From positions 400,133 through 464,132 of the forward strand of contig CAVONU010000003.1 of the NCBI GenBank assembly GCA_963697385.1: 64,000 nucleotides of DNA, in the 5' to 3' direction. A program made the translations under genes and the position numbers. This stretch comes from an uncultured Acidimicrobiales bacterium (GTDB taxonomy: Bacteria; Actinomycetota; Acidimicrobiia; Acidimicrobiales; CAWCAL01). Shown here piece after piece: positions 5,876 through 64,000 of the stretch (positions are counted from its first letter, which is position 1; every line of letters begins with the position of its first letter). The notes under the pieces are model-generated. The model had not been told where the DNA came from and did not search any database. It saw only the letters and a list, made by a program, of their open reading frames with translations.

Positions 5876-7767
5876 GAGCGAACGGGGGTCAGGAAGACCG
5901 CTCCCAGCGGCGGAACGCTCACCTCCAACGAGACCTCGTACCCGTGCGCGGGTTCGTCGGTGGTCGTGAGTGTGCCGTTGCCCACGCCGCTGCCACCGAA
6001 CCGCTGATCGTCGCTGTTGAGCAGCTCGCCCCAGAAACCGGCGAGCGGGACCCCGACCCGGTAGCTCCAGCGCGGCACCGCCGTGAAGTTGCACAGCACG
6101 AGGACCGGCCGGGTGTCGGTATCAGCGGCATCGGTGCGCAGGAACGCCAGCACCGCGTTGCGATCGTCGTCGCCGACGACCCATGCGAACCCGGCCGGGT
6201 CGTGGTCGATGCGATGCAGGGCCGGCTCGGACCGATAGGTGCGGTTCAGTGCTGCGACCCACTCGAGCATCGCCCGGTGCTCCGGCTGCTGGAGCACGCC
6301 CCAGGGCAGCTCCTGCTCGTGCTGCCATTCCTCGTCCATCGCCAACTCCGAGCCCATGAACAGGAGCTTCTTGCCCGGACTCCCGTACTGGTAGCCGTAG
6401 AGCAGGCGCAGGCCGGCCAACTGCTGCCATCGGTCGCCGGGCTGGCGGGACACCAGGGATCCCTTGCCGTGCACGACCTCGTCGTGTGACAGCGGCAGGA
6501 CGAAGTTCTCGCTGAAGGCGTACACCATCCGGAACGTCAGCTCCCCGTGGTGCCAGTGTCGATGGATCGGATCGCGCTGGACGTATTCGAGGGTGTCGTT
6601 CATCCAGCCCATGTCCCACTTGAACCCGAAGCCCAGTCCCCCGTCGTCGGTGGGTCGGGTCACCCCGGGCCATGCCGTGGACTCCTCGGCGATCGTGATC
6701 GTGTCCGGATGATTGACATAGATCCGCCGGTTGAGCTCCTGGAGGAAGCTGACCGCGCCCAGATTCTCGTTCCCGCCGAACTCGTTGGGGATCCACTCCC
6801 CCTCGGCCCGCGAGTAGTCCCGGTAGAGCATCGAGGCCACGGCGTCGACCCGGATCCCGTCGGCGTGGTAGCGGGAGAGCCAGAACCGAGCGCTGCTCAG
6901 GAGGAAACTCCGGACCTCGTGGCGGTCGTAGTTGAAGATCGCACTCTTCCAGTCGGGGTGGAACCCGAGGCGCTCGTCGGCGTGCTCGTACAGGTGGGTG
7001 CCGTCGAACACCGCCAGCCCGTGCGCGTCCGTGGGGAAATGCGACGGCACCCAGTCCAGGAGGACGCCGTAGCCGCGTTGGTGCAGCAGGTCCACCAGGT
7101 ACATCAGGTCCTGGGGCGTGCCGTACCGAGCGGTCGGCGCGAAGTAGCCGGTCGTCTGGTAGCCCCAGGAGCCGTAGAACGGGTGCTCCATCACCGGGAG
7201 GAGCTCGACGTGGGTGAACCCGGTCTCGTCGAGGTGGTCGGCCAGCTGGTGGGCGAGCGCTCGATACCCACCCGGTTCGTAGCGCCAGGATCCGAGATGG
7301 ACCTCGTAGATCGAGATGGGTGCGTCGTGCCGATTCCGCGCGCCGCGGCCGGCCATCCAGTCGGCGTCGCCCCACTCGTACGACAGGTCGGCGATCACCG
7401 ACGCCGTCCGGGGCGGCTCCTCGGTGGCGAATCCCACCGGGTCCGCCTTGTCGAGCCGGGTGCCGTCGGGAGTCACGATCCGATACTTGTAGCGGTCGCC
7501 GACCTCAGCGCCGGCCACGCGAGCCGACCAGATGCCGGCCGACGAAGGGGTCAAGGGGGCGGCACCCTCGGTCCAGTCGTTGAAACTGCCGATCACCGAG
7601 ACGGTCGCGGCGCTGGGAGCCCACACCCGGAACACCGTGCCCCCACCGCCATCGACGTGGGCACCGAGCACCGCGGCGACGTCATCGTGGGTGCCCTCTC
7701 CGAATCGCCAGAGATCTGCGTCGGGGACGGGCGGGGTGGTGTGAGGGTCCGGGACTGGCATGGGCAC
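5872..7767 (-). CDS. glgB: 1,4-alpha-glucan branching enzyme
   Basis: GH13 motifs 'GVLLDWVPSHF', 'GIRVDAVASMLY', 'TIAEESTAWPG', 'LPLSHDEVVHGK'. 631 aa. Start is GTG 7767 or ATG 7761. Confidence 0.95.
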   Translation of the reverse strand: MPMPVPDPHTTPPVPDADLWRFGEGTHDDVAAVLGAHVDGGGGTVFRVWAPSAATVSVIGSFNDWTEGAAPLTPSSAGIWSARVAGAEVGDRYKYRIVTPDGTRLDKADPVGFATEEPPRTASVIADLSYEWGDADWMAGRGARNRHDAPISIYEVHLGSWRYEPGGYRALAHQLADHLDETGFTHVELLPVMEHPFYGSWGYQTTGYFAPTARYGTPQDLMYLVDLLHQRGYGVLLDWVPSHFPTDAHGLAVFDGTHLYEHADERLGFHPDWKSAIFNYDRHEVRSFLLSSARFWLSRYHADGIRVDAVASMLYRDYSRAEGEWIPNEFGGNENLGAVSFLQELNRRIYVNHPDTITIAEESTAWPGVTRPTDDGGLGFGFKWDMGWMNDTLEYVQRDPIHRHWHHGELTFRMVYAFSENFVLPLSHDEVVHGKGSLVSRQPGDRWQQLAGLRLLYGYQYGSPGKKLLFMGSELAMDEEWQHEQELPWGVLQQPEHRAMLEWVAALNRTYRSEPALHRIDHDPAGFAWVVGDDDRNAVLAFLRTDAADTDTRPVLVLCNFTAVPRWSYRVGVPLAGFWGELLNSDDQRFGGSGVGNGTLTTTDEPAHGYEVSLEVSVPPLGAVFLTPVRS

Positions 7768-58628: not shown

Positions 58629-59855
58629 GTGAGCGACCTTCGGCTCCCCGAGCCGGGACGGAGCAGCGCCGAAGCCTTCGTGCGGAATCATCTCGGCCAC
58701 CTCGTCAGCGACGACGTCGCTGGCTCGAACCGCATCCGCGGAGGTCAGATCGCAGCGGACACCGCGCTGGCGGCGTTCCCGGTGGCCGGCTACGCCCGCC
58801 GCCGCAACGAGGTCCACCCGGTGTCGCGTCGAGGCGCGTCGCGACTGTCGCCCTACATCCGCCACGGGCTCCTCCAGCTTCCCGACGTCTGGCGAGCCGT
58901 GGCCGCAGGACCGAGTCGGGACGTGGCCAAGTTCCGGGACGAGCTGCTGTGGCAGGAGTACGCCCGCCATTGGTACGCGCGGCTCGGACGTCGGACCGGC
59001 CAGGGGGTCCGTCGGGAGCTCATGGCACCGACCGGATCGGTCGGCGGCTGGGATCGCACGCTTGCGTGCCTCGACCTGGCACTCGGCGAGCTCGAGGCCG
59101 ACGGCTGGATGGTCAATCAGACCCGCATGTGGCTCGCCAGCCATTGGGCCGTTCGGGATGGCCTCCGCTGGCAGGACGGCGAGGACGCCTTCTTTCGCCA
59201 CCTGCTCGACGGCTCCCGGGCCGCCAATCGGCTGGGTTGGCAGTGGACCACCGGGGTCGGTTCGTCCACGAGCTACGGATTCAGCCGTCGGCAGGTCGAG
59301 AAGCGTGCGCCGGGCGTGTGCGACACCTGTGAGCTGAAGGACGGCTGCCCGATCGAGGAGTGGCCGGTCGACCCGGTCTTCGTCGCACGCGAGCGCCCGT
59401 CCGACGGGCGTGGCGATCACGAGTCCGTTCCGAGGGCGGGACCGGGTGCCGTGGTGCGGCGGGGCGACCCCGACGCCGTCTGGCTCACGGCAGAGTCACT
59501 CGGCGATGCCGACCCTGCGCTCGCCTCGCACCCCGACCTTCCGGCGGTCTTCGTCTTCGACGAGCCTCTGCTGCGGGGGCTCCGCCTTTCGTCGAAACGA
59601 CTTGTGTTCCTGACCGAGACGCTGGCCGAGTTGGGCTCCCACCGTCCGGTGGAGCTCCTCCTGGGGGACCCCGTCCGCCTGCTCGCTGAGCGCTCGCTGG
59701 CGGTCACCCACGCACCGGTACCGGGATTCGAGCGTCGAGCCGACGTACTGGGCCCGGTCGAGATCCACCCGTGGCCATGGTTGGCCGAACCCGGCCATGG
59801 ATCCGTGGCGTCGTTCAGCGCGTGGCGCCGCTCGGCGAAGCGCACCGTGGGGTGA
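58629..59855 (+). CDS. cryptochrome/photolyase-family protein with FAD-binding domain first and alpha/beta (photolyase N-terminal-like) domain last
   Basis: N-terminal two-thirds: 'RGGQIAADTALAAF...YARRRNE...ASRLSPYIRHG...ELLWQEYARHWY...MVNQTRMWLASHW...FFRHLLDGSRAANRLGWQWTTG' (FAD_binding_7-like). C-terminal third: 'AVWLTAESLGDADPALASHPDLPAVFVFDEPLL...SKRLVFLTETLAELG...ELLLGDP' (like the photolyase alpha/beta domain). Confidence 0.7.
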   Translation: MSDLRLPEPGRSSAEAFVRNHLGHLVSDDVAGSNRIRGGQIAADTALAAFPVAGYARRRNEVHPVSRRGASRLSPYIRHGLLQLPDVWRAVAAGPSRDVAKFRDELLWQEYARHWYARLGRRTGQGVRRELMAPTGSVGGWDRTLACLDLALGELEADGWMVNQTRMWLASHWAVRDGLRWQDGEDAFFRHLLDGSRAANRLGWQWTTGVGSSTSYGFSRRQVEKRAPGVCDTCELKDGCPIEEWPVDPVFVARERPSDGRGDHESVPRAGPGAVVRRGDPDAVWLTAESLGDADPALASHPDLPAVFVFDEPLLRGLRLSSKRLVFLTETLAELGSHRPVELLLGDPVRLLAERSLAVTHAPVPGFERRADVLGPVEIHPWPWLAEPGHGSVASFSAWRRSAKRTVG

Positions 59856-59967: not shown

Positions 59968-61128
59968 ATGACGGCAGGTCGTGCGGCGGGAGTGTTCGGG
60001 AAGCTGGCGTGGGCCTCGGTGCCACTCGCCCTCGCCCTGGTGATCGCGGCATGTACGCCCCCACCCCCCTCCGACGGCACGCCGGTGATCAACGCGTTCT
60101 CGGCCAATCTCACATCAGGACCGGCACCGCTCACGACGGCGTTCACCTGGAACATCGCTGATTCCGACTCGCCCACGCTCACCTGCGGCCTCGACCTGGA
60201 CGACGACGGCGTCTATGAGATCACGATCACCGCGTGCACCAGCTCGTCGGTCCGGTCCGCCACGTTCGACACACCCGGAACCCACCCGGTCCGACTGCAG
60301 GTCTCCGACGGCACCACGACGGTGACCAGCGCTCCCGTCACGCTGACCGCGGGTGCCGCCTCGGCCGACACGTACGCCATCACCGTTCGGTTCAACGGGA
60401 CCCTCACGACCACCCAGCAGGCGGCGTTCACCGCCGCAGCAGAACGGTGGTCAGAGGTCGTCCGCACCGGGCTGACGGACATCCCCATCAACGTGCCCGC
60501 CAACTTCTGCGGCACCGGCGCTCCGGCGTTCGCGGGAACCGTCGACGATCTGCTGATCGAAGCCAACATCGAGCCCATTGACGGCTCGGGCGGCATCCTG
60601 GCGAGTGCAGGACCGTGCCTGACGCGTCTCGCGGGCGGCCTTCCCGTGTACGGGGCCATGCGGTTCGACTCGGCCGACGTGGCCGACCTCGAGGCGGATG
60701 GCCAGCTCGAGACGGTGATCCTGCACGAGATGGGCCACGTCCTCGGGATCGGCACGGTCTGGGGGCTGCGGGTGAACGGTCGCGGCACCTCCAACCCGGT
60801 CTTCACCGGCCTCACCGCCCGTGGCGCATGGGATGCGGTGGTCGGCGGCAGCGGAGAATCCGTCCCGGTCGCCAACACCGGCGGCCCGGGCACCGCCGAC
60901 GCCCACTGGCGCGAATCGGTCTTCGGGAACGAGCTGATGACCGGATACCTCGACAGCGGTAGCAACCCCCTGAGCGCAATCACCGTCGGATCGCTGAGCG
61001 ACATCGGCTACGGCGTCGAGCTCGGCGCCTCCGATCCCTTCGGCACCCCGGCGGTCAGGACCCGATCGAGCCAAGGTATCCAGCTCGAGACCGACTTCAT
61101 CTACCCCCTCGGCGAGGTGGCCGGCTAG
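59968..61128 (+). CDS. secreted lipoprotein zinc metalloprotease (PKD-like domain + leishmanolysin/M8-like HExxH domain)
   Basis: GGGAG RBS 7 nt upstream. Lipobox 'LALVIAAC'. PKD-like 'GPAPLTTAFTW...DDDGVYE...GTHPVRLQVSDG'. Catalytic 'ILHEMGHVLGIG' with a downstream 'ADAHWRE'. Confidence 0.8.
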   Translation: MTAGRAAGVFGKLAWASVPLALALVIAACTPPPPSDGTPVINAFSANLTSGPAPLTTAFTWNIADSDSPTLTCGLDLDDDGVYEITITACTSSSVRSATFDTPGTHPVRLQVSDGTTTVTSAPVTLTAGAASADTYAITVRFNGTLTTTQQAAFTAAAERWSEVVRTGLTDIPINVPANFCGTGAPAFAGTVDDLLIEANIEPIDGSGGILASAGPCLTRLAGGLPVYGAMRFDSADVADLEADGQLETVILHEMGHVLGIGTVWGLRVNGRGTSNPVFTGLTARGAWDAVVGGSGESVPVANTGGPGTADAHWRESVFGNELMTGYLDSGSNPLSAITVGSLSDIGYGVELGASDPFGTPAVRTRSSQGIQLETDFIYPLGEVAG

Positions 61129-61156
61129 CCGCTCACGAGATCGACCCCGGCCGGAG

Positions 61157-61519
61157 CTACGCCACGAGGTGCTCGGGACGGTCAGCTGGATCCTTGTCGA
61201 TCGGCATCGTCCACTGCTCACCTGGCAGGTTCGTGGCCAACACGATCCGCACCGGTGGCCCCGCCAGATTGCGGTGCAGCCAGCCGGCAGGCGCCTGGAG
61301 TCGGCATCCAGGCTGGATCTCGGTGACGTTGCCGTTCTCATCGCTGAAGGAACCGGTCCCCGAGATCACCCACGACACCGCCTCGAACTCGTGCCAGTGC
61401 AGCGGCTCGTCCTCCTCGACGGTGAGGTCGAACGCAAGGCAGTGGAGACCCAACTCGGCCCCCTGAGCGAGGGCGTCCTCCTCGCTGAGCGGCTCATCCT
61501 GACGGAACTCGTACTCCAT
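61157..61519 (-). CDS. cupin-domain protein
   Basis: 120 aa. 'LHWHEFEAVSWVISGTGSF...GCRLQAPAGWLHRN' fits the two cupin motifs. Confidence 0.8.
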   Translation of the reverse strand: MEYEFRQDEPLSEEDALAQGAELGLHCLAFDLTVEEDEPLHWHEFEAVSWVISGTGSFSDENGNVTEIQPGCRLQAPAGWLHRNLAGPPVRIVLATNLPGEQWTMPIDKDPADRPEHLVA

Positions 61520-61668
61520 GACCTGCGCTCCCCTCGGACGGTCCCGACCGGAGCGCCCTCGGCGCCAACCCTATCCGTCGGAGGTGGCCCCCGACCGCGC
61601 CATCAGGCCGGCTTCACGGGACCGACAGACAGGTAGGAAAAAGCCCATTGCAAGATAGGCTTTCGGCC

Positions 61669-62499
61669 ATGTCCTTCGAGAACCTGTTCGACTACACCGC
61701 CACCCAGTACGAGATCGTCCTCAGCGTCTTCACCCTGACTGCGGCCGTGTTCGCCGCTGTGCTGGTGTACTCCCTGGCCACGGCGAAGTCGATCTCGCCG
61801 CGCTACCGCATCACGTCCTACCTCACCGGCGTCGTCATGGTGAGCGCCGTGCTCGAGCTCGGCCTGCTTGCGCTCCGGTGGTCCGGAGCGTTCTCGTGGT
61901 CGGGCAGCAGCTACACGCTCACCGGGAGTCTGTTCTCCAACGGGTTCCGGTACATGAACTGGAGCATCGACGTTCCGGTGCTCCTCACTCAGCTGCTGGT
62001 CGTGGCAGGGATCACCGGAGGCATCTTCTTTCGCCGGTGGGCGTCCTTCGTGGTCGCCGGCCTGGCGATGATCTGGACGGGCTATGTCGGCCAATTCGAC
62101 GAGGTCGATGGTGGGGCGCAGTTCTGGATCTGGGGCGCCATCAGCACCGTGTTCTACCTATGGCTGCTGTTCGTCGCTTGGCAGACCATCCAGGACGCCC
62201 GCCAGCGGTCATCGGCCTCGGTGAGCCGGCTGTTCTCGGCTGTGTGGATCCTGTTCCTGGTGTCCTGGACGATCTACCCCCTCGCCTACCTGATGCCCCA
62301 GATCTGGGACACGGCCGACGGCGTCGTCCTCCGGAACCTGATCTACAGCTTCGCCGACATCAGCTCCAAGGCCGTCTACGGCATCCTGCTGGCCGTCATC
62401 GCCCAGAAGGTGAGCGCCGAGGAGGGCTATGAGCCGGCCATCGACGCCGACTTCTGGTCGGACCGGACGCCCGACCGCGAGCCGGAGAGCGTCTCGTGA
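61669..62499 (+). CDS. microbial (type-1) rhodopsin with NDQ motif, KR2-like putative light-driven Na+ pump
   Basis: Seven TM segments. Helix C 'NGFRYMNWSIDVPVLLTQLLVV' versus KR2 'NGYRYLNWLIDVPMLLFQILFV' (N, D, Q at the BR D85/T89/D96 positions). Helix G 'SFADISSKAVYGILL' versus KR2 'TIADVSSKVIYGVLL' (Schiff-base Lys). Also 'WTGYVGQFDEV', 'WGAISTVFY', 'VWILFLVSWTIYPLAYLMP'. ATG 61669 (MSFENLF) is preferred over TTG 61648. Confidence 0.9.
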   Translation: MSFENLFDYTATQYEIVLSVFTLTAAVFAAVLVYSLATAKSISPRYRITSYLTGVVMVSAVLELGLLALRWSGAFSWSGSSYTLTGSLFSNGFRYMNWSIDVPVLLTQLLVVAGITGGIFFRRWASFVVAGLAMIWTGYVGQFDEVDGGAQFWIWGAISTVFYLWLLFVAWQTIQDARQRSSASVSRLFSAVWILFLVSWTIYPLAYLMPQIWDTADGVVLRNLIYSFADISSKAVYGILLAVIAQKVSAEEGYEPAIDADFWSDRTPDREPESVS

Positions 62500-62969
62500 C
62501 GGTACCGCCCAGCTCACCACTCGAGCGGCCCTACCCGGAGTTCGACGAGAAGCCGTTCTTCGCCGAGACGATCCAGCTCCTGCGATCGGTTCGGGACCAC
62601 GACTTCGACACCCTGGCCGAGCTGTGCGACGACGACTTCGGCATCGTCGACATCGCCCCCGACGGCACCAACGTGGCGATCCGGAGCCGATCGGAGTGGG
62701 AGGCGTGGTTCCACGGTCTGTTCACCCAGCTGGACACCATGCACGCATCCACCGACAGCGCGGTGATCGCCTACGACGCCATCAAGACCGACGAGATGGG
62801 CTTCTCCGTCCTGGAGTTCCGCCAGAGCCTGGTCGTCGGCGACCTGACCGCTCGATTCGACTGCATGACGACCATCGTGTGGAAACGGGTCGACGGGGCA
62901 TGGCGCGAGGCCCGGTGGCACGGCTCGGTGCTGTCCAGCAGCGTGCCCGAGGAACTGCTCCACGCGTAG
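62496..62969 (+). CDS. NTF2-like (SnoaL/DUF4440-type) protein
   Basis: 157 aa. 'LRSVRDHDFDTLAELCDDDFGIVD...SRSEWEAWFHGLF...FDCMTTIVWKRVDGAWREARWH' fits the NTF2-like cone fold pattern. GTG forms a GTGA overlap with the rhodopsin stop (62496..62499). Confidence 0.7.
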   Translation: MTVPPSSPLERPYPEFDEKPFFAETIQLLRSVRDHDFDTLAELCDDDFGIVDIAPDGTNVAIRSRSEWEAWFHGLFTQLDTMHASTDSAVIAYDAIKTDEMGFSVLEFRQSLVVGDLTARFDCMTTIVWKRVDGAWREARWHGSVLSSSVPEELLHA

Positions 62970-63081
62970 CGCCGACGTCGCGCAGCCACGAACGCGATCC
63001 AACCCCACCGGGTAGCCTCGGCACACGCCAATTCGGCCCGAGGGTCGCTGTGAGACGACCATCACCTGACGGGACTCAATC

Positions 63082-64000
63082 GTGCAGAGATTCAAGAACA
63101 TCCTCTTCACCGCCTTGACCGAGGAGGGCATCGAGCCGGCGCTGCAGCGGACCCACGAGCTGGCCGCCCGGAACGATGCGTCCCTCACCGTGTTCGGGAC
63201 CGTCCCGGAACCGTCCCGCCTGGCACGGGTCCTGCAACGAAACGCGGGCCCCTTCCCCGAGACGCTGGCCGATCAGCTGCGACTGGCGCTCGCCGAGCAG
63301 GTGGCGAAGGTCGACGGCCCCTCGACGGCTCGGGTCGAGGTGGCGGTCGGCGTGCCGTTCATCTCGATCATCGAGCGGGTGCTCGGCGAAGAGCACGACC
63401 TGGTGATCATCACCGACGACGGCCCCGACAGCCCGGTGGCCAGCACGACCAAGCACCTGCTCCGAAAGTGCCCCTGCCCGGTGTGGGTCATGCGACCGAA
63501 GGGGGCACCGGGACATCGCGTGCTGGCCGCCATCGACCCCGAGCCCGACGACCCCGAGGAGATGAACCGACTCATCCTCGACCTGGCCAGCTCGCACGCC
63601 CGGTTGACCGACGCAGAGTTCCACGTGGCCCACGCCTGGAGCGTCTACGGGGAGCCGGCGCTGCGGACCAGCCCCTTCCTCAGGTCCCCCGGGGGAGAGC
63701 TGGACGACCTGCGGCAGGAAACCCGGGACGGGCACCTCAGCCGCCTCGAAGACTCCGTCACCCGCCATGGGGTCGGCGGTCTGGAACACAAGGTCCACCT
63801 CGTCGAGGGCGAACCCGGCGATGTGATCCCCCATCTGGCCGAAGCGCACGACATCACGCTGCTCGTCATGGGCACCGTCGGCCGGACCGGGGTGCCGGGC
63901 CTGATCATGGGGAGCAACGCCGAGCGCATCCTCGACCAGGTGCGCTGTTCGGTCATCGCGGTGAAGCCCGAGGGCTTCGTCTCGCCCGTCGCCGGCGGGA
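63082..64000 (+). CDS. tandem universal stress protein (two UspA domains), 3' end beyond the window
   Basis: Absent from the ORF track because no stop is reached. My translation from GTG 63082: 'VQRFKNILFTALTEEG...HDLVIITDDGP...KHLLRKCPCPVWVMRP...HRVLAAIDPEPDD...HDITLLVMGTVGRTGVPGLIMGSNAERILDQVRCSVIAVKPEGF...'. In-frame TGA at 63067 upstream. Confidence 0.85.
   Translation, partial: MQRFKNILFTALTEEGIEPALQRTHELAARNDASLTVFGTVPEPSRLARVLQRNAGPFPETLADQLRLALAEQVAKVDGPSTARVEVAVGVPFISIIERVLGEEHDLVIITDDGPDSPVASTTKHLLRKCPCPVWVMRPKGAPGHRVLAAIDPEPDDPEEMNRLILDLASSHARLTDAEFHVAHAWSVYGEPALRTSPFLRSPGGELDDLRQETRDGHLSRLEDSVTRHGVGGLEHKVHLVEGEPGDVIPHLAEAHDITLLVMGTVGRTGVPGLIMGSNAERILDQVRCSVIAVKPEGFVSPVAGG

Follow-up and report, generated by a model that had tools for sequence, protein, structure and literature searches.

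An NTF2-fold protein encoded beside microbial rhodopsin genes, a probable accessory of retinal pumps

Results

A rhodopsin gene overlapping the gene of an NTF2-fold protein

We analyzed a stretch of 64,000 nucleotides of contig CAVONU010000003.1, hereafter named the window (C3:400133-464132 of the genome labelled G000), in which the gene of a microbial rhodopsin overlaps the gene of a small protein of NTF2 fold. The host, an uncultured Acidimicrobiales bacterium of high GC content, comes from soil or sediment, and its genome is 96% complete; among the listed sequencing runs, the stretch was present only in soil and sediment DNA metagenomes, and in no RNA run. Genes were located from a six-frame list of open reading frames (ORFs) together with the sequence, and domains were taken from a Pfam scan, reported at E<=0.01. 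The features of the locus are the following.

61157..61519, minus strand: cupin gene, an ORF of 120 amino acids, divergent from the rhodopsin gene; Cupin_2 at E 4e-6 and 26.9 bits, just under the 27.2 cut-off
61669..62499, plus strand: NDQ-motif rhodopsin, 276 amino acids, from ATG 61669 to TGA 62497-62499; PF01036 (Bac_rhodopsin), E 4.5e-34
62484..62489, plus strand: GGAGAG, a putative Shine-Dalgarno sequence within the rhodopsin 3' end, 8 nt before the GTG of the NTF2 gene
62496..62499, plus strand: GTGA, a stop/start overlap of 4 nt, in which the NTF2 GTG overlaps the rhodopsin TGA
62496..62969, plus strand: NTF2-fold protein (SnoaL_3 / CaMKII-hub-like), 157 amino acids, from GTG 62496 to TAG 62969; PF13474 SnoaL_3
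63082..64000, cut by the window end, plus strand: tandem universal stress protein (USP) of UspE-like architecture, from GTG 63082; two PF00582 (Usp) stretches, E 1.2e-31

The GTGA overlap, the USP gene starting 112 nt after the NTF2 stop on the same strand, and the divergent cupin gene, 149 nt from the rhodopsin start, are all present in the sequence as a first-pass annotation had described them. Within the NTF2 ORF, GTG 62496 is the sole start codon before the first family-invariant residue, Ser7, so that the overlap is forced and is no artefact of ORF calling. Overlaps of -4 or -14 nt are also found at the closest NDQ loci, which belong to other genera (L008, L009, L035, L036, L040 and L041), and at L018, and a spacer of some 70-100 nt separates the two genes at most loci of the DTE type. 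The overlapping junction is thus conserved in the rhodopsin clade of the window, and it fits the co-transcription and translational coupling proposed by that annotation. As the NTF2 start overlaps the pump stop, behind a Shine-Dalgarno-like sequence, the two proteins are probably made from one message and co-translated. Scans of positions 61100-64000 gave no sigma-70 promoter and no intrinsic terminator, such scans being uninformative for a high-GC actinobacterium.

The rhodopsin itself has a seven-helix family match, with the retinal Lys234 in a D-x-x-x-K context in helix G. Its helix C, RYMNWSIDVPVLLTQ, places N97, D101 and Q108 at the positions of bacteriorhodopsin residues 85, 89 and 96 (hence N-D-Q). 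The closest solved relative is 8qle (E 1.7e-70), and Glu63 of the window rhodopsin aligns with the helix-B Glu of ‘aalelg’ in 8qle. The structure 8qle is that of ErNaR, which founded subgroup 2 of the NDQ sodium pumps, a subgroup whose hallmark is an extra Glu in helix B, E64 in ErNaR (PMC11006869). From the NDQ motif, the best relative and Glu63, the window rhodopsin is therefore predicted to be a light-driven Na+ pump of subgroup 2 (ErNaR type). Both proteins have the NDQ motif, an additional Glu in helix B and a C-terminal helix region; the words “operon” and “carotenoid” are absent from the text of the ErNaR paper (PMC11006869).

The pairing is conserved across four phyla

A collection of 83 NTF2-family loci was assembled by searching one genome per species with the window protein, and then with a 40-sequence alignment. 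Rhodopsins near these loci were called with a jackhmmer rhodopsin profile run over the ORFs of the loci. In 59 of the 83 species-representative loci a rhodopsin gene directly adjoined the NTF2 gene, on the same strand in 57 cases, with the following arrangements.

Rhodopsin adjacent, upstream, same strand: 49 loci
Rhodopsin adjacent, downstream, same strand: 8 loci
Rhodopsin adjacent, convergent: 2 loci
Rhodopsin within 4 kb, not adjacent: 2 loci
No rhodopsin in the flank: 22 loci, 4 of them with the NTF2 gene at a contig edge

Twenty-one genomes account for the 22 loci lacking a flanking rhodopsin, and 18 of these genomes carry a rhodopsin elsewhere. Altogether, a rhodopsin is found in 79 of the 82 genomes bearing the NTF2 family, against a background of 51 out of 401 high-quality Acidimicrobiia genomes (13%), and none in 14 control genomes. 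Hosts of the family span Actinomycetota, Bacteroidota, Rhodothermota and Chloroflexota, and the gene pair is present in the cultured Pengzhenrongella phosphoraccumulans, Thermoflexibacter ruber, Fibrisoma montanum and Nocardioides sp. Soil774. A distant member of the family, P0137 (E 1e-33), also sits directly behind a rhodopsin gene. The neighbourhood survey thus finds the pairing in related and unrelated genomes alike. The first-pass annotation knew of no described rhodopsin/NTF2 operon, and our full-text literature searches likewise found no description of a link between rhodopsins and this NTF2 family. We consider it very probable that the NTF2 protein is a functional accessory of rhodopsins.

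G000 is the only genome of the order in which the NTF2 protein was found. The sister species G002 has a 92%-identical rhodopsin between the same cupin and USP genes, and no NTF2 gene. In the DNA alignment with G002, the TCGTGA stop and the spacer preceding the USP gene are kept, and only the NTF2 ORF, about 500 bp, is gone. Given that the closest NDQ loci of other genera share the overlap, the G002 state is most simply read as a deletion of the NTF2 gene.

Some loci depart from the common organization. At L007, the closest relative of the window NTF2 gene (6001-6450, 80% identity) is followed by a 42%-identical tandem paralogue (6536-6973), with no adjacent rhodopsin; the NDQ rhodopsin of this genome is encoded on a different contig, L187. 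The NTF2 gene is split in two frames, by probable frameshifts, in L021 (6001-6415) and in G548, the genome of L190 (C8:26106-26568). A probable frameshift also splits the gene of the retinal-pathway protein Blh in G091 (C27:165532-166315). These frameshifts could reflect gene decay or assembly errors.

One NTF2 protein for several kinds of pumps

A Gly at the position of bacteriorhodopsin W138 opens the window for a carotenoid antenna in xanthorhodopsin-type pumps. The rhodopsin of G000 has such a residue, Gly156 (62134-62136), in the context FWIWGAIST. Partner rhodopsins were classified by pump motif and by this antenna position, over 58 partners from the fetched loci, the NDQ-Gly pump of the window being excluded.

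DTE with Gly at the antenna position: 28/58
NDQ with Gly (two subtypes): 16/58
DTE with Phe: 11/58
Other: 3/58, namely one DTE with Ala, and two odd motifs with Gly at the antenna position

Across loci, the median pairwise identity is 56% for the NTF2 proteins and 32% for the partner rhodopsins, and for pairs of loci whose rhodopsins fall below 35% identity, the NTF2 value is still 54%. The NTF2 tree tracks taxonomy, and the pump type switches inside clades. For instance, the well-supported NTF2 clade of the window contains 11 members, five with NDQ partners, four with DTE-Phe partners and two unlinked. Among 12 genomes with an NDQ pump and a single NTF2 copy located elsewhere, this copy lies beside a DTE pump in 9, and has no rhodopsin in its flank in 3. 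Examples of genomes with NDQ (Na+) and DTE (H+) rhodopsins on different contigs, and a single NTF2 gene, are L119/L080, L128/L059, L136/L077, L140/L039, L144/L038 and L187/L007. The partner role is therefore independent of the ion specificity and of poorly conserved surfaces of the pump. With both NDQ and DTE partners, and one copy in two-pump genomes, the NTF2 protein looks like a generic accessory of retinal pumps, present as one copy per genome. A universal docking motif in the C-terminal tails of the rhodopsins was rejected, none being common to all partners.

Regulatory genes accompany part of these loci. In 25 loci, nearest NDQ relatives included, the rhodopsin gene is preceded by a divergent gene for an HTH-B12 (LitR/CarH-type) regulator. 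No LitR/CarH regulator was found on the contig of the window, the four B12-binding matches of G000 being on C1 and C6. Beside DTE-Phe pairs, genes for a PAS-SpoIIE (PP2C-type) phosphatase and for a sigma-70-family factor are found downstream of the NTF2 gene (L047, L066, L077, L085) or upstream (L011, L037-L039), which hints at a partner-switching regulatory unit in this clade. A WhiB gene seemingly downstream in 31 loci was discarded: these are mostly shadow ORFs in alternative frames of the NTF2 gene, which cluster together. In about 10 loci a member of this cluster begins at or beyond the end of the NTF2 gene, and of these L080 alone was checked against Pfam.

Family, fold and conserved residues of the NTF2 protein

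The window protein matches PF13474 SnoaL_3 over residues 28-146 (33.3 bits, for a cut-off of 22), and its Pfam matches are limited to SnoaL_3, SnoaL_2 and DUF4440. With 468 homologues at E<=1e-3 and 47 invariant columns in the 40-sequence alignment, the ORF is a real gene. The family is compact, with 143 representative clusters at E 1e-3, and 24 at E 1e-30, among 1.84 billion proteins. No informative domain fusion was found in it, the longest relatives having N-terminal extensions without Pfam matches.

The AlphaFold2 model (pLDDT 89.9) is an alpha+beta cone, with helices at 22-33, 37-43 and 65-81, followed by four long strands. Foldseek places it among NTF2-like folds with a probability of 1.0, the best PDB matches having a TM of about 0.64. 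All of the 50 best structural matches are CaMKII hub domains, scytalone dehydratase, bile-acid 7-alpha dehydratase, a single designed protein that binds cortisol, or 3gwr, a bacterial putative CaMKII-association-domain protein. By profile, CaMKII hubs are the sole solved relatives (E 0.001 between the family profile and the CaMKII beta hub). The window protein gives no match to PF08332, the family of the CaMKII association domain, and its relatives P0124 and P0136 match just above the curated cut-off.

Aromatic residues W68, W71, F72, F76, F108, F121 and W141 are invariant in the family, and W129 nearly so. The invariant columns include many charged residues, namely D45-47, D52, R63, R65, D87, K130, E138, R140 and H142. 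Strands 5-6 were aligned, weakly, with the CaMKII hub via anchors W129, D133-G134, W136, H142 and S144. On this weak alignment, the arginine positions of the hub cavity correspond to the small residues A119 and G/A/C143 and to the variable residue 131, whereas the outer face, opposite the cavity, would hold the invariant W136/E138/R140/H142 and D122/K130. The hub mapping suggests a roomy aromatic cavity, formed by W68, W71, F72, F76, F108, F121, W129 and W141, and a conserved polar outer patch, which could be an oligomer or docking interface. By fold, and tentatively by profile, the nearest known system is the CaMKII hub with its bacterial SnoaL_3/DUF4440 relatives such as 3gwr, with landmarks C-D...G...P and W...W...H-x-S in common. 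The hub differs by its cavity arginines, replaced in the NTF2 family by Ala and Gly/Ala/Cys as mapped by the alignment, and by its attachment to a kinase, which the NTF2 protein lacks.

Pigment genes in the hosts

Profile searches of the 96%-complete genome of G000 found no PF00494 (phytoene synthase), no PF18916 (heterodimeric lycopene cyclase) and no Blh (PF15461), the latter being also without a match in G001 and G002; the Blh search was validated by its matches in G008 and G058. G000 has a weak and partial match to PF05834, N-terminal only, and at least three full-length CCD (RPE65-family) oxygenases. From this gene content, G000 probably depends on external carotenoids or retinal, and would be a scavenger.

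A reverse survey, made from the rhodopsin side, covered 47 genomes with NDQ pumps of the Acidimicrobiia type (>=63% identity; loci L115-L159, L185 and L187) and 28 genomes with more distant NDQ pumps (Micromonospora, Modestobacter, cyanobacteria, Planctomycetota and others). The 47 genomes, 25 with and 22 without the NTF2 gene, served as a matched set for the pigment genes, with the following counts.

Blh: 1/25 with the NTF2 gene, 4/22 without
CCD: 18/25 with the NTF2 gene, 11/22 without
PF00494: 3/25 with the NTF2 gene, 7/22 without

Over the wider samples, Blh is found in 15 of 79 NTF2-bearing genomes, versus 6 of 48 rhodopsin-bearing Acidimicrobiia without the NTF2 gene. The NTF2 gene as a replacement of Blh was thus rejected at the genome level, Blh being about equally rare with and without it, a result that extends to CCD and phytoene synthase in the matched set. 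A strong PF00494 match together with Blh occurs in 5 of the 47 NDQ-bearing Acidimicrobiia, and 42 are without this combination, counts that are not controlled for the incompleteness of metagenome-assembled genomes. Most soil and sediment Acidimicrobiia with Na+-pump rhodopsins thereby appear to be without a de novo retinal route.

Other genes of the neighbourhood

The cupin gene has an 82.5% identical copy at the same place in G002 (L004), and no match in the 16 NTF2 loci searched (L007-L022). The USP is 83% identical in G002, where it comes directly after the rhodopsin gene, and its gene has a 77%-identical DNA match in the sister species G001 (L198, G001:C3:733658-737578). Compared with PRK11175 (UspE), it scores 118.5 bits, below the cut-off of 227, short of an equivalog-level UspE match. 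In G001, neither rhodopsin nor NTF2 gene was found, and the stretch from cupin to NTF2 has no DNA match; the block therefore varies within the genus. The USP and cupin genes were rejected as members of the module, as they are conserved only within the same genus.

Two genes upstream of the rhodopsin, at 58629-59855 (plus strand), lies a gene related to photolyases and cryptochromes (FAD_binding_7, E 6.9e-11). A FAD_binding_7 gene is also found near the rhodopsin-NTF2 pair of Pengzhenrongella (L031 9139-10284), and such genes may mark a light-related neighbourhood. At 59968-61128 (plus strand), the window encodes a secreted leishmanolysin-like (Peptidase_M8) metalloprotease, with a weak PKD match and a probable lipoprotein-type N-terminus, for which homologous DNA exists at other places in G001.

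Discussion

Microbial rhodopsins are held to need only opsin and retinal, and the accessory genes known for them are those of pigment synthesis (crt genes, blh). What, then, would a small soluble protein do beside pumps of such different kinds? Since the same NTF2 protein goes with Na+ and H+ pumps, and one copy serves both, it would act, in the cytoplasm, on something common to all its partners, the likeliest candidate being the retinal chromophore. Its hydrophobic cone would bind free retinal, or a retinoid precursor, and the bound retinal would then be handed to newly made opsin, or buffered. Such handling would matter where a host without detectable carotenoid or retinal synthesis scavenges its pigment. 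We place the probability of this mechanism at roughly 0.4. The geometry of the genes, the linkage of the family to rhodopsins, its independence from the kind of pump and its dispensability come from the data directly, and co-translation, the ligand and the hand-over are inferred. The first-pass annotation had proposed a chromophore or carotenoid chaperone, or else a regulatory partner of the pump. Our best guess is still chromophore handling, for which retinal seems a likelier ligand than a carotenoid of the antenna; a carotenoid carrier of the OCP/CTDH type found no specific support. A specific regulatory contact with the pump is disfavoured by the pairing of nearly identical NTF2 proteins with Na+ and H+ pumps sharing about 30% identity.

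Several observations weigh against retinal handling. On the hub mapping, a number of invariant charged residues lie on the outer face of the sheet, which suggests a protein interface and not a lipid pocket, and the top fold matches include enzymes. The gene is dispensable, as G002 lacks exactly this gene and many NDQ genomes are without it. Among the 47 genomes with NDQ pumps of the Acidimicrobiia type, it lies beside the NDQ gene in 13, elsewhere in 12, and is missing from 22; among the 28 with distant NDQ pumps, none has it beside the pump gene, one has it elsewhere (a frameshifted copy), and 27 lack it. The family is also absent from 48 of the 50 rhodopsin-bearing Acidimicrobiia sampled. 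Finally, the matched set shows no significant association of the NTF2 gene with Blh, CCD or PF00494, and its presence does not track Blh, CCD or CrtB.

Alternatively, the protein may be a soluble partner docking on the pump by its conserved polar surface, either as a transducer or regulator resembling the ASRT of Anabaena sensory rhodopsin (ASR), or as an assembly or stability factor. The operon position and the coupled start speak for docking, as do the outward-facing invariants W136/E138/R140/H142 and D122/K130, which by hub alignment would alternate along strands 5-6, and an E-E/D-G-Y-like stretch found after helix G in most actinobacterial and Chloroflexota partners. Yet the tail motif is missing from Bacteroidota partners and retained in G002, which has no NTF2 gene; moreover, conservation is far higher among the NTF2 proteins than among the pumps, sister proteins pair with NDQ and DTE, one copy serves two-pump genomes, and the gene is unlinked in 21 genomes. 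We regard docking as unlikely. Complex prediction with the rhodopsin and the NTF2 protein gave no support and no evidence against, and was not used either way. We judge somewhat less probable still a light- or stress-regulated protein that shares the rhodopsin regulon and acts elsewhere, by co-regulation or hitch-hiking. The LitR/CarH-type regulator gene upstream in 25 loci, the PAS-SpoIIE and sigma-factor genes of the DTE-Phe type, the unlinked copies in 21 genomes, the easy loss in G002, and the USP and photolyase-like neighbours in the window would all agree with it, but it accounts poorly for rhodopsins in 79 of 82 family-bearing genomes versus 13% in the background, and for an adjacency kept across four phyla with either gene order, and even in convergent arrangement, with no other neighbour in common.

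Two further proposals concern the pigment itself. In one, the protein would be a cofactor-free enzyme of the NTF2 superfamily, making or tailoring the chromophore (retinal formation, isomerisation or modification) in place of Blh. Scytalone dehydratase and bile-acid 7-alpha dehydratase are indeed among its top folds, the family has invariant Asp, His, Tyr, Cys and Lys residues, 64 of 79 NTF2-bearing genomes lack Blh, and a five-genome clade with the NTF2 gene upstream of NDQ has neither Blh nor CCD. However, Blh is equally rare without the NTF2 gene (6/48 Acidimicrobiia, 4/22 in the matched set), and eight genomes with a classic Blh still keep an unlinked NTF2 gene. Most of these genomes, G000 included, are also without phytoene synthase, so that there would be no substrate to cleave, and we know of no precedent for an oxidative cleavage of carotene by a metal-free NTF2 fold. 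Such an enzyme thus seems as improbable as a protein merely sharing the regulon. The other proposal, by analogy with the C-terminal domain of OCP and with CTDH, is a carotenoid carrier for an antenna of the xanthorhodopsin type, which would be consistent with the NTF2-like cone and with Gly at the bacteriorhodopsin W138 position in 46 of 58 partners and in the window's own pump. It is the least probable of the four: antenna rhodopsins need Gly where 11 of the 58 partners have Phe and one has Ala, and G000 and most related NDQ-bearing genomes, with or without the NTF2 family, have no phytoene synthase. The analogy itself finds no support from family or fold, with no match to PF02136, the Pfam NTF2 family that includes the OCP C-terminal domain, and neither OCP nor CTDH among the 50 best structural matches.

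The pair of rhodopsin and NTF2 protein can be set against three known systems. OCP and CTDH share with the NTF2 protein a cone fold and a light-related context, but the hosts here are not cyanobacteria and some of the partners are without an antenna window. ASR and ASRT form, to our knowledge, the one rhodopsin operon that is well known to include a small soluble partner, likewise encoded directly downstream. However, ASR is a sensor and ASRT a beta-sandwich tetramer, whereas here the rhodopsins are two kinds of ion pump and the NTF2 protein is predicted to be an alpha+beta cone; with Pfam matches to SnoaL families only, the NTF2 protein does not belong to the ASRT family. The rhodopsin-blh and crtEIBY-blh clusters, in which genes for retinal supply accompany those of proteorhodopsins or xanthorhodopsins, similarly place a small accessory gene beside the pump in many lineages, often in the same transcription unit, and make a role linked to the chromophore plausible for the NTF2 gene too. 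Blh is nonetheless a membrane di-iron dioxygenase and the NTF2 protein a soluble fold, whose gene neither replaces nor excludes Blh at the genome level.

A family nearly confined to rhodopsin-bearing genomes, mostly adjoining the pump gene, in four phyla, and indifferent to whether Na+ or H+ is pumped, would be a missing component of retinal phototrophy. If it handles retinal, this would help to explain how the many rhodopsin bacteria devoid of carotenoid or retinal synthesis are pigmented, and the NTF2 protein could improve the heterologous expression of pumps for optogenetics. As a still more tentative proposal, which we hold to be doubtful for now, the family may represent a new class of cytoplasmic retinal chaperones, or holo-rhodopsin assembly factors, charging Na+ and H+ pumps with scavenged retinoids in soil and sediment bacteria without a carotenoid pathway. 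If true, microbial rhodopsins would then have their first soluble protein dedicated to chromophore delivery.

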